This document shows positions 12,440 through 52,564 of a stretch of 64,000 nucleotides of DNA, piece by piece. The number at the start of each line of letters is the position of its first letter. Position 1 is the first letter of the stretch. The notes beneath the pieces are model-generated. The model was not told where the DNA came from. It saw only the letters and a program-made list of their open reading frames with translations, and did no database searches. The translations under genes were made by a program, and so were the position numbers. Origin of the DNA: Octopus sinensis (taxonomy: Eukaryota); contig NC_043006.1 of NCBI RefSeq assembly GCF_006345805.1, forward strand, positions 67,084,001-67,148,000, read 5' to 3'.

Positions 12440-13385
12440 GATAGAATGGTCGAAGGATAGTTAGACAGACAGACAGACAGACAGACAAACAGACAGATAG
12501 ATAGATAGATAGATAGATAGATAGATAGATAGATAGATAGATAGATAGATAGATAGATAGATAGATAGATAGATATTTTTCTTTATTGGACACGCAGGGC
12601 CTAACACAGAAGGGACAAAATACAAAGTACAGCTTTTCTCTTTGGGAAGAAGAGAAAAATGAAAGAAAGAAAAAAGAAAAAGACCACGGGAACCTTGGGC
12701 AATAGTGTCATGTAAAAAAAAACATTACAGTAAGTGGCTCTCTTTTTTCCTTTTTTTTTGAGATAGATAGATAGATAGATAGATAGATAGATAGATAGAT
12801 AGATAGATAGATAGATATAGATAGATAGATAGATAGATAGATAGATAGATAGATAGATAGATAGATAGATAGATAGATAGATAGATAGATTGATAGATAG
12901 ATAGATAGATAGATAGATAGATAGATAGATAGATAGATATGTTTCTTTATTAGCCACATATAGATAGATAGATAGATAGATAGATAGATAGATAGATAGA
13001 TAGATAGATAGATAGATAGATAGATAGATAGATAAGCGCCCTACTACACAGACACTTAATGACCGAGATTGAGCATGTGAACATGTATGCACTTTTATTT
13101 GTATGTTTATGGGTGAGTATGTATGTGTGTGTGTGTGTGTGTGTGTGTGTGTGTGTGTCTGTGTGTGTGTGTGTGTTACTATGAGTACAAAAGTATCTGT
13201 ATTTGTTTAATTTTAAAAAGAAATGTACTTAAAAGAAGTGGAACTGATGGATGGATGAATAGATAGACAGACCGATAGATAGATAGATAGATAGATAGAT
13301 AGATAGATAGATAGATAGATAGATAGATAGATAGATAGATAGATAGATAGATAGATAGATAGATAGATAGATAGATAGGTGGATG
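12440..13385. repeat. (GACA)n/(GATA)n tracts with embedded LINE tails
   Basis: Directly visible. Confidence 0.95.
12574..12760 (-). mobile_element. 5'-truncated L1/Tx1 LINE, 3' UTR only, inside (GATA)n
   Basis: Matches the 3' UTR of 50835-51678. Its 3' end CAATAAAGAAAAAT joins ATCTATC. A ~22-nt stub of the same tail lies at 12939-12960. Confidence 0.85.
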
Positions 13386-13445
13386 GATGGTCATTATCAC
13401 GTGACTGTATGAACTCTATTCCAACTGACAACATTTCATGAAGTC
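13072..13445 (+). repeat. Donor of local duplication copied to 17453-17792
   Basis: Near-identical unique sequence plus TG and GATA tracts at both sites. Confidence 0.9.
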
Positions 13446-14003
13446 AATAATGGGATCAAAGCCAGGCAAGGGTTACAAAACGATATCTCCGATCAACGCT
13501 TCAACGTTTGACCGGAGATGACCACTCTAATAGCTAGATGGAAATTCTGCTAACCACTTTAGGGGCCTGACTGCAGTTGGAACGCAGGTTAATGCTTAAT
13601 GTTAATGGCTAATAGCAGGCTTTTAGCGATATACGGTTAGCGACAAGATATTGGATATGGGCTGGGGGAGTATCGTGGGACGAACACGAGGCAAAAATCA
13701 TTAATATAAATAGTTTTAAAGCAACGACCACTGGTCAATATTTTACGGTTTTTCTATGTTGTGATATCACTTGCCGCGTTAGCAACCTGTGATCTTTGCT
13801 CTCCTCTACTCGTTACAAAAAATTGCACATATAAACTCCTTCTTCCACACGCACTTCACCGAAACCAACATTTATACGCATGCGTGAGTGTGTGCGTGCG
13901 TGTGTGTATCTGCATGGATATGATTATACATAAAATAAATAGACATATATGCATGCATACATATATACATACATGCAAATATATATATATATATATACAC
14001 ATC

Positions 14004-14432
14004 CTTTTACATGTTTCAGTTTTTCACTGCGGCCATGCTGGGGCACCGCCTTTGGTCGAACAAATCCACCCAAGGACTTATTCTTTGTGAGCTTAGTACT
14101 TATTCTGTCGGTCTCTTTCTGCCGAACAGCTATGTGACGAGGACGTATACACAGCAACATCGGTTGTCCAGCGATGGTTGGGGAACACAGATACACACAT
14201 ACGTATATATATATACATATATACATATATATATATATATGTATGTATACACACACACACACATATGTATATATACGAAGGGCTTCTTTCTGTTTCCGTC
14301 ACCCAAATCCATTCACAAGGGTTTGGCCGGCCCAAGTGTATAGTAGAAGACACTTGCCCAAATTGCTATGCAGTGGGACTGAACCCGGAAACATGTCGTT
14401 GGAAAGCAAGCTTCTTAACACACAGACCTTCT
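14004..14432 (-). mobile_element. SINE family A
   Basis: Same two-part structure as 1450-1937. Confidence 0.85.
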
Positions 14433-14571
14433 ACCGCCTATATGTGTGCGTGTATGAGCGCGCGCGTGTGTGTGTATGTTTGTATATATATATATATATA
14501 TATATAATATATATATAGATATATATATAGATAGATAGATAAATAGATAGATAGATAGATAGATAGATAGA

Positions 14572-48959: not shown

Positions 48960-49033
48960 GTAAGTGACCTTCCCTCTTGCCTCTTGTCTCTTCCAATGTA
49001 GTGTGTGAAACACAATTTTCGTAAACGTCAATT

Positions 49034-50517
49034 ATGCTTAAATTAGGTTGTGTGAGTGTGCGTGGCTTGGCGTCGGCTTGGAAGCAAGGTTACCTTCTAA
49101 ACGACATCAAGTCACTGAACGTGGATATAGTAGCTATCAGCAAGCCGCGGGCCCTCGCGTCCATGTTTGGCGATCAATTTGTCATTTATTTTTCTCCTTG
49201 TCTTCCAAACATGGGTGGTAGAGGTACCGCGGTGCTTTTTCGAAAGAGTCTAAATGTAAAAGTAAAAACAATATTCCTAGACCCGGAGGGTAGGCTGGTT
49301 GTCTTGGACGTGGATGGCAGAAATGGGTGTGCATTCCGTCTGATGGCAGTTTATGCACCGTCCTTAACGGGTCGGGAGGATGTCTTCAGACGTCTAGAGG
49401 TTTTCCTGGGTACGTCTAGACCTTTACTGTTAGTAGGGGATTGGAACGCTACCTTGGACACGCATCTAGATTATGTGGGAATGGATAGGAATAGAAGGGG
49501 GTGTAAGTGCCTCAAAGACCTACTCAGATGTTTCCATTTGTCTGACAGGTTCCGACTCGACCATCCGAACGTGCCAACGTGGACTTGGACAAACCGCGTC
49601 GGATCGTCGAGATCTTATCTAGATAGAATTCTATGCAGGACAGCGGATAGGGATAGTGTAGGATGTCCACAATTTAAAATAGTCAGCTACACAGATCACA
49701 AATTTGTTACGTGTACGCTCGACTTAGATAAGACACATAGACAGGGTCCCGGTTACTGGAAACTGAACACATCGCTCTTAGTGCGACAGGTTTACAGGAA
49801 CCGGATTAGCGAGTTAATTAAGAGGGCGCTGACGGGAGCCGTCGTTAACAACCGCTGGTGGTACGCCCTGAAAATGGCAATAAAATCGGAATCAATTAGG
49901 TTTAGCAAGGAATTAGCGATAGATCGAAATAGAGTAGAGGGAGATCTGGTTAAGAAACTAAAAGAGGCACTTACCACTGGCAGCGCAACCATCGTGCTGG
50001 CTGCGAGGATGGCCCTCGACCAACACCTCAACGCCAAGCACGAGGGTTGCGTCGTCAGAGCTAAAATGCGTGCCTTAAGGAACGAAGGGATCGAAGCTGC
50101 GCGAGAGGCCCGGGTAGCGGGGGCGCAGCGGGGCAACAGGGCCACCATTCGGTCTCTAATAGATCAACAGGGATGCAGTTTACTCGAACCCGAAAGGATG
50201 TGTAAGGCCTTTCAACAGCACTTTGCTCGACTGTTTGGTGCGAGTGGTGGGTCGGAACGCGGGATGGATTTCAGTGCCTACCTGACCGACTTGCCGCGGC
50301 TCTCTGCAAGAGAAGCAAAGTGTTGTGAAAGTCCCATCAGAGCCGCTGACGTGCGGGATGCGATGGCGGGCTGCGTGAGGGATAAGTCGCCTAGATTGGA
50401 TAGTTTACCCTACGAGCTGTATTGTCAAATGCCAGACTTGTTTGGCGACCTCTTGGCATCAGTCTACTGCAACTGGCAACAAAACGGGAGAATCCCCGGT
50501 TTCGTGAGCACGTCCGT
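49034..50517 (+). pseudogene. L1/Tx1 ORF2 N-terminal part: APE endonuclease to start of RT, truncated at (GATA)n
   Basis: SVRGL, GTAVL, DPEGRLV, AVYAP, VGDWN, TW...SRSYLDRI, TDHK, GPGYWKLNTSLL, KSPRLDSLPYELY. Confidence 0.93.
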
Positions 50518-50834
50518 AGATAGATAGATAGATAGATAGATAGATAGATAGATAGATAGATAGATAGATAGATAGATAGATAGATAGACTGATTGATATA
50601 TACATAGATAGATAGATAGATTGATAGATAGATAGATACATACATACATACATACATAGACAGGCAGTCAGACAGACAGACACGCAGACAGACAGACAGA
50701 CAGACAGTCAGACAGACACACAGATAGATAGATAGATAGATAGATAGATAGATAGATAGATAGATAGATAGATAGATAGATAGATAGATAGATAGATAGA
50801 TAGATAGATAGATATATCGATAGATAAATAGATA

Positions 50835-51678
50835 TGTTTCTTTATTGCACACACAGGGCTGAACACAGAGGGGACAAAATACAAAGTAGAGCGATTCTTT
50901 TGGGGATGAAGAGAAAAAAAGGGGATCGTGGAAAAAAAAGCCGATAATTAGGGATCGTGTGTCTCAGAAATGTCATAATGTAACAAGGGAAAGAAAAGCC
51001 TACGGAAATGACCACGGTAACCTTGGGCAATAATGTCATGTAAAAAAACATATTACAGTTAGTGACTCTCTTTTTTCCTTTCTTTTTTTGGTTCATAAGA
51101 TTATGCTCAAGCTGGCTCCGTTATTCACATCTTTTTTTGAAACATTCACTAGACAAAACTTCCCTCTTTTTCCCTCACATTCCTCTTCAAGTGATAGTTG
51201 AAGAAGTTGATGAGAGATTGACTAGAGAGGAAAGTGTTTGTCTCTAGCCCTCTCAGACGCGCCTACCATACAGATTCTTTCGCCATAGCCACAAGTATGA
51301 TGAAAATAGTTCTTCCTTCCCGTTTCAAGGAAGGAGACGCGATAATATTCACGATAGACTCGGTTGATAAACCACACACGATAGCAGTCGTTCGACGTAA
51401 GCCCACAGGTTGGAAATGGTTGGACACTACGAGTGCGTGCAGGACGGTTTCGTTGCTCTGACCGCATCTCGGGCAGGTCGGTCCTGTGTTTCTCAAGCCA
51501 TGCCTGTAGAGCTTATACGGAACAGGTAGCACTTCTTGTTAGCACAGCCAGGCAAGGGATCTCTGGAAGTTGTCCATAGGTCCCAGCCCGAAAGTCGTCT
51601 TCAACAGGCGGGTCAGGTATTCCTTGTTGACGCCCTGGTTTGCCCCGAAATCGTCGTCGTACTCCACCAATCCCCCAA
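50835..51678 (-). mobile_element. 5'-truncated L1/Tx1 LINE flanked on both sides by (GATA)n
   Basis: GPTCPRCGQSNETVLH...MAKESVW; the 3' end GCAATAAAGAAACAT joins ATCTAT. Confidence 0.9.
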
Positions 51679-52564
51679 GATAGATAGATAGATAGATAGA
51701 TAGATAGATAGATAGATAGATAGATAGATAGATAGATAGATAGATAGATAGACAGATAGATAGATAGATGGATAGATAGATAGATAGATGGATAGATAGA
51801 TAGATAGATAGATAGATAGATAGATAGATAGATAGATAGATAGATAGATAGATAGATAGATAGGTAGATAGATAGATAGATAGATAGATAGAAGATAGAT
51901 AGATAGATAGATAGATAGATAGATAGATAGATAGATAGATAGATAGATCATATGATGAAAGGAGAACAGATTACAATCTGTAAAGTATTTATACTTCATA
52001 CGTTCTAGTAGAACCCACTGTGAATATCTAACTACTGATGTTTTTCTTCATCGGAGAACACCTATTCCTCTAGACGTACTCACAATTTACTAGTGTAGGG
52101 TTAGGCGCCAAAATGTTTCTATTTATTGTGCATAGAGATTCTCTAAAGGGAGGATGTGTTATCCATTGGCGTTAAACAACAGTCATAAGATATTCACGTT
52201 CTAATGTGTCAGAACGTGTCAAGTATCAATAGATACGTTATTATTTGGATTCTCACCGTTCTGCCTGCACCTCAGGATTTCTTATCTATTTGGCGAGCAT
52301 CCGTAAAAATCAGCAAATATTATGTTTGTTGATTCCTAACAACAAGGACTCTTGTTAATGTCAGATTCATAGGTCCGGCATTATAGCTGAGGTGACGCAT
52401 AAAGAGGCCGAAACGCCTCGGCATGTCAATGACCTTGTTCATTGTTCACTCGTATGTCTTATAAATACACGTCACCTAAAACGAGGACGTCTTCACCGAA
52501 GAGAAACAACAATCTTCGAATATTCCCGGTGGAATCTGCCAGAACGTGCAAGGAATGAATAGTT

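Follow-up and report, generated by a model that had tools for sequence, protein, structure and literature searches.

The question raised by a 64,000-nucleotide stretch of the Octopus sinensis genome (contig NC_043006.1, positions 67,084,001 to 67,148,000; hereafter the window) is whether the GATA microsatellites that border a retrotransposon there were the target into which the element inserted or a tail that the element made itself. In the window lie five fragments of a single retrotransposon lacking long terminal repeats (non-LTR), a long interspersed nuclear element (LINE). A preliminary description of this DNA had favoured target over tail, a choice that is supported by the 5’ junctions, by an inverted copy and by a sister lineage lacking a tail, and that is tempered by resting on five copies. 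We conclude with considerable confidence that GATA is a real target of this LINE, by whatever route, and that the element likely inserts preferentially into existing (GATA)n microsatellites.

The five fragments, here called A to E, are 5’-truncated copies of about 19 bp to 3.65 kb. All have their 3’ ends on the minus strand, near positions 12576, 12940, 14574, 46866 and 50835, respectively. Copy A (12576–12760) comprises the last 185 bp of the LINE, from the 3’ untranslated region (UTR), and is 88% identical to copy E, an 844-bp 3’ fragment (50835–51678). Copy B (12940–12958), which matches C at 17 of 18 positions, represents the terminal ~19 bp either of the LINE or of a short interspersed nuclear element (SINE) with the same tail, and copy C (14574–16779) is a 2.2-kb 3’ fragment in which the reverse transcriptase (RT) and zf-RVT regions are frameshifted. 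Copy D has a 3’ part on the minus strand (46866 to ~47982; the end of the second open reading frame, ORF2, and the 3’ UTR) and a 5’ part on the plus strand (47983–50509). Pairwise identity across the four longer pieces (A, C, D and E) is 71–88%, indicating old or separate insertions rather than one local duplication.

In copies A, B, C and E, the element ends in AATAAA and six further nucleotides and then passes into TATC repeats, in identical phase in all four; in copy D, AATAAA is followed by 4 nt and then by a decayed array of TATT/ATCC and later TATC units. A poly(A) tail is absent from all five copies. On the other side, GATA is found at the 5’ junctions of A (12760), B (12958), D (50517) and E (51678), such that A, B and E have GATA arrays on both sides, that on the 5’ side of E spanning 51679–51945. 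The preliminary description had reported both the five uniformly oriented 3’ ends leading from AATAAA into GATA/TATC repeats and the four GATA 5’ junctions, and all of these were recovered. The phase of the 3’ junctions is fixed, and that of the 5’ junctions is variable.

Positions within 6 bp of a plus-strand array of at least three GATA units make up 2.3% of the window, giving a post hoc probability of 1.5e-6 for at least four of five 5’ junctions at GATA. Two of the 5’ arrays, however, double as the 3’ array of a neighbouring copy, which the preliminary description had overlooked; among the three independent 5’ junctions, two are at GATA, and the post hoc probability of at least that many is 0.0017. 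Could insertions simply survive or cluster in neutral DNA that is rich in microsatellites, with no targeting at all? Microsatellites do occupy 6639 bp, about 10% of the window, of which GATA contributes 21% of the bases, and a passive build-up has been proposed for the Drosophila element Waldo (PMC3812793). However, AT repeats outnumber GATA in the window and AC and AAT repeats are common, yet the junctions use none of them; the fixed 3’ phase likewise speaks against such an account; and three other dispersed repeats (23 copies, with BLAST-derived and hence approximate boundaries) contact GATA at only 1 of 46 ends. We therefore regard passive accumulation as quite improbable. Seven of the 14 plus-strand GATA arrays have no LINE copy in contact. 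As a separate observation, the GATA arrays of the window are biased in strand, with 14 on the plus and 1 on the minus strand (7 versus 1 among arrays without LINE contact).

The association of the 3’ ends with GATA proves nothing by itself, because a self-made tail would yield the same pattern. If the repeat were made by the element, as in the RTE, CR1 and L2 groups, the GATA at 5’ junctions would have to stem from template jumps between RNA tails or from landing in older tails. The fixed 3’ phase and the association in all five copies are then expected; moreover, only pure GATA separates A from B, 180 bp apart, and an octopus RTE element with a microsatellite in its 3’ UTR has been described (PMC9115989). 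The likeness to RTE, CR1 and L2 extends to a short 3’ repeat that may pair with the nicked target (PMC6007223). A self-made tail of that kind, however, would be confined to the 3’ end, whereas in the window the repeat also occurs at four of five 5’ junctions, in a lineage that differs further by its zinc-knuckle ORF1 and L1-like ORF2. Furthermore, the 5’ arrays of E (267 bp) and B (75 bp) follow no other copy, and the array between D and E (50518–50834, plus strand) is a compound of GATA, CATA and GACA units. Although D and E share only 77% identity (23% apart), they flank this one array, and similar compound arrays exist free of any element; the two copies thus seem to be independent insertions into an array that was already present. 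Landing in older tails would, in addition, amount to targeting in itself, and neither the sister lineage nor a SINE that bears the same tail carries the repeat. A self-made tail thus appears unlikely.

The sister lineage came from a scan of a genome collection, which returned 41 loci at 43–44% identity to the protein P0203, plus two distant loci. All 41 sit on eukaryote-like contigs within one bacterial metagenome-assembled genome (MAG), where full-length elements with two ORFs form head-to-tail arrays with a period of 6.4–6.9 kb. In 41 of 41 motif-matched junctions, AATAAA leads straight into a 10–20 nt spacer or flank without poly(A) or microsatellite, and the same pattern recurs at 6 further junctions on two other contigs and at 3 array ends. 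No GATA or telomere arrays of three units were found in the 41 loci. At one locus (L119), a 16-bp word recurs on either side of a single copy as a clear target duplication. The sister lineage accordingly adds no self-made repeat tail, and this speaks for GATA being target rather than tail in the window family. Ten sister loci gave no match in Rfam, and hence show no target of the small nuclear RNA, ribosomal RNA or transfer RNA families. Apart from the question of tails, the MAG is labelled ‘Arenicella’ in GTDB (G001; loci L081–L121 and L124–L130) and carries at least 64 element 3’ ends on 16 eukaryote-like contigs, with a distinct 10–20 base spacer for each subfamily, pointing to contamination of the MAG and to an unusual LINE lineage arrayed in tandem with itself.

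Copy D provides a second line of evidence. Between its two parts, whose inner junction lies at 47982–47995, ~1.1 kb of RT (residues 274 to about 640 of P0001, the closest protein) is absent, and the plus-strand segment stops just before the RT domain. In contigs from other copies of the family, the sequence past 50509 continues into RT, and that past 47981–47995 into the thumb region of ORF2. This arrangement has the layout expected of a twin-primed 5’ inversion, as in human L1 copies with an inverted 5’ segment, a deletion and a forward 3’ segment (PMC2912911), from which D differs in having no poly(A), in the ~1.1 kb lost and in bearing 8 extra bases instead of microhomology. Those 8 bases (50510–50517, plus strand), foreign to the family sequence, separate the inverted segment from the GATA array and ruled out microhomology at the outer junction. 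The outer junction itself falls mid-ORF2, without any RNA tail, and still adjoins GATA, so that GATA is present at both outer ends. Because this junction lies before the RT, where no RNA tail exists, it counts for targeting.

The inverted segment of D, the copy that ends at 46866, also holds the apurinic-endonuclease-like (APE) domain (49034–49741, plus strand) that had been put forward as open and usable for study. From the ATG at 49034 the frame is indeed uninterrupted over 497 codons, with a match to Exo_endo_phos in Pfam, but two conserved active-site residues are gone: position 49056 encodes Ser where the family has Asn, a difference seen at full depth in three contig runs, and 15 nt coding S-E-T-R-L, including the conserved Glu, are absent, loose ends at 49137–49140 showing them in other copies. 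A Glu-to-Lys substitution was considered and ruled out, the lesion being a 15-nt in-frame gap. Judging by these two changes, the APE of copy D is likely inactive.

How might the element find GATA? The endonuclease would cut the (GATA)n strand close to GATA|, and the 3’ end so released would prime reverse transcription. Poly(A) cleavage normally occurs 10–30 nt past the AATAAA signal. Because AATAAA lies only 4–6 nt from the end of the element, read-through past that end would add to the RNA a few UAUC units from the flank of the parent copy. Their pairing with the nicked strand would explain why the 3’ phase is fixed and why poly(A) is missing. Variable joining of the second strand would give the variable 5’ phase, and in copy D the second end would have been primed inside the RNA. 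Pairing of RNA with the target aids priming in R1Bm and SART1 (PMC7265360, PMC6007223), and TATC differs by one base from the known target unit TTTC. We favour this combination of a nick on (GATA)n with RNA pairing, at moderate confidence.

A related account, to which we give a minor share of probability, dispenses with the specific nick: a loosely specific endonuclease would nick widely, and GATA would be chosen by RNA–DNA pairing alone, only UAUC-paired nicks being primed. Since in vitro nicking by L1 is less specific than its integration (PMC1950540), this alternative is a live one. The position of AATAAA 4–6 nt from the element end suits it, as does the behaviour of the sister subfamilies, each of which repeats its own 10–20 nt spacer, with 5’-truncated copies following the same spacer and array ends resembling it; RTE elements have also been proposed to change sites along with their 3’ repeats (PMC6007223). 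On the other hand, double insertion and unequal crossing-over would equally yield the sister arrays, as the two identical truncations in one locus (L111) illustrate. A change at the protein level would fit the hairpin loop that reads the target, tied to target choice in the L1 endonuclease (PMC1950540): between its anchors it has 9 residues in the window family, as in L1, and 11 in the sister, as in the Tx1L graft; the loop length of the window family predicts no target. In a tentative extension of low probability, the read-through RNA would act as a guide whose 10–20 bases after the parent copy pair with nicked DNA, specificity being inherited from the landing site. One landing in GATA would then have founded a GATA-seeking octopod family, the sister would stack head-to-tail on its unique spacers, and changing the flank would reprogram target specificity.

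RNAs that share the tail bear on the same point. A multimeric SINE at 8288–9030 (plus) and 57721–58095 (minus) has internal units that end in the last 42 bases of the LINE, three of them at 8464–8506, 8649–8690 and 8829–8870 (plus strand; 76–86% identity to E over ~42 nt) and a fourth at 57857–57898 (minus strand; 79% to E), and is likely the SINE partner of this LINE. Its units, with the same tail and a different read-through, run into SINE sequence, as selection by RNA pairing alone would predict. A resemblance between the terminal tail of the SINE and the sister 3’ end was not established, with the best three windows all on SINE ends and scoring 34–37 against 31–40 for shuffled sequence. 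Elsewhere in the window, SINE copies at 23041–23200 (plus), 24810–25015 (minus) and 17872–18050 (plus) border on (ATT)n, which two of the copies have on either side. Their terminal tail is the one with this weak likeness to the sister 3’ end, no better than for shuffled sequence, and they may form a parallel system that targets ATT.

Several points weigh against GATA targeting. The evidence consists of only five copies in two clusters with two shared arrays, 12761–12939 serving both the 5’ side of A and the 3’ side of B, and 50518–50834 serving D and E in the same way. Given adjacency to any microsatellite, the post hoc probabilities rise to 0.008 for four of five 5’ junctions and to 0.12 for the independent two of three. 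The 5’ junction of copy C (16779) is non-GATA; the non-GATA stretch that follows (16780–17222) includes a 380-bp, 72% self-complementary fold-back at 16824–17203 that resembles a miniature inverted-repeat transposable element and may have overwritten the original junction. The four SINE units with the LINE’s tail run into SINE sequence, not GATA, which shows that on at least one occasion RNA bearing this tail became fixed away from GATA; three of the four share one junction and may represent a single inherited event. The looser nicking of L1 in vitro belongs here too, and the sister junctions are not independent of one another, lying in homogenised arrays of a distant lineage. Finally, the 19 loose ends listed (of 2,038) on copy D, none of them GATA, all lie at internal points and are uninformative about flanks, the comparison having skipped the repeat end at 46846–46877.

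An assembly artefact, in which contigs joined through GATA arrays would have placed unrelated fragments together, is favoured by the lack, among the contigs matched to D, of one demonstrably crossing the inversion. The window contains a 100-N gap (31499–31598), and the word share of the APE stretch is 0.35–0.55 in 20 sequencing runs from 9 organism codes, never above 0.55. However, contigs falsely joined within an array would create no junction between element and GATA, and the five copies differ by 12–29%, which makes this explanation highly improbable.

We next consider what kind of element this is. Pfam domains were matched in D (Exo_endo_phos, and zf-CCHC in its ORF1 piece) and in C (RVT_1 and zf-RVT, the latter slightly below cut-off), and the order of APE, RT and C-terminal zinc motif is complete in the sister protein P0217. 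The ORF1 end with zf-CCHC at 47983–48339 resembles the sister ORF1, indicating a separate ORF1 upstream of ORF2. Compared with solved structures, P0217 is closest to human L1 ORF2p (E 5e-73 over 860 residues; R2, 6e-27), a best match that establishes membership in the L1 group. As judged from its sequence, then, the window LINE is an L1-group APE/RT non-LTR retrotransposon. The ORF1 of Tx1 elements typically has a CCHC zinc knuckle, unlike that of vertebrate L1, and the knuckle in the ORF1 of the window family matches this feature, though it is not exclusive to Tx1. Membership in the Tx1 clade is plausible; the tree contains no named Tx1 reference, and no protein, atlas or cluster search with the family or its relatives returned a named Tx1 sequence.

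Protein P0001 is 68% identical to the ORF2 part of D and 62% identical to C across frameshifts, and the nearest named relative, Argonauta hians GAB1597330.1 (P0204), is 68% identical to P0001. In a quick tree of 73 rows, copy C, P0001, P0319 and the Argonauta protein form one clade with a support of 98 in the Shimodaira–Hasegawa-like approximate likelihood ratio test (SH-aLRT), and this clade joins the 27-row sister group at 89. The placement points to an octopod as the likely host. Viral contigs yielded no relative by protein search or by 3’-end pattern; metagenome contigs yielded 80 loci, all distant (23–36%) and mostly incomplete, none with GATA near the end of ORF2. The family is abundant: in each of three contig runs (X1, X2 and X18), thousands of contigs match 3.7 kb of D (46846–50522), the totals in descending order being 9,236, 8,029 and 4,136. 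Raw run X22 yielded just 19 poor reads over the same stretch, compared with thousands of contigs in X1 under the same species label.

Three further features of the window were recorded: a local duplication of ~350 bp (13075–13448 / 17463–17795), with GT and GATA arrays, upstream of copies B and C; a 2.2-kb inverted duplication (32748–34953 / 37189–39396) at 94.7% identity; and, at 28549–28917, a degenerate tandem repeat of a 14-bp unit that also shows higher-order periods.

Microsatellite targets have precedents on several branches of the non-LTR elements. Those of Kibi and Koshi were reportedly described by Kojima and Fujiwara in 2004. Within Tx1, the targets are (TC)n for Kibi, (TTC)n for Koshi and (TTCC)n or (TTTC)n for crocodilian families (PMC4494074). 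Like these, the window family is an APE-type L1-group LINE found inside a microsatellite on both sides and in one orientation, and TATC can be grouped with their pyrimidine-rich units; it differs in the target unit TATC and in its mollusc rather than vertebrate host. The crocodilian study takes one repeat in more than 20% of flanks as its measure of target specificity, and in the window the repeat flanks five of five 3’ ends and four of five 5’ ends; (TATC)n nevertheless falls outside the TC, TTC, TTCC and TTTC targets of the Kibi/Koshi group. Waldo on (ACAY)n and Mino on (AC)n, both of the R1 clade, Dong on (TAA)n (PMC3812793) and Togen on (TG)n (PMC4640811) are likewise microsatellite-specific non-LTR elements, with Waldo also having a four-base target, but they belong to other clades and use other repeats, and the sister protein of the window lineage is closer to L1 than to R2.

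GATA is therefore probably a new target for a known type of microsatellite-specific LINE. Our literature search found no GATA-targeting LINE; Repbase and Dfam, which may already record the family, were outside that search. For O. vulgaris, 13 recently active L1-Tx1 families are reported, their targets undiscussed in the available text (PMC13282606), and in the accessible portions of papers on octopus repeats, L1-Tx1 elements are counted without mention of targets (PMC13282606, PMC8967140, PMC9115989, PMC10294476). If GATA targeting is true, the few LINEs that seek microsatellites would be joined by one with a GATA target and a mollusc host; how such elements reach microsatellites has been described as poorly understood (PMC3812793). 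With one branch on GATA and the other in self-tandem arrays, the tail-less lineage would be a clean system for separating endonuclease choice from RNA pairing, and GATA targeting by so abundant a family may account for part of the repeat-rich octopod genome.

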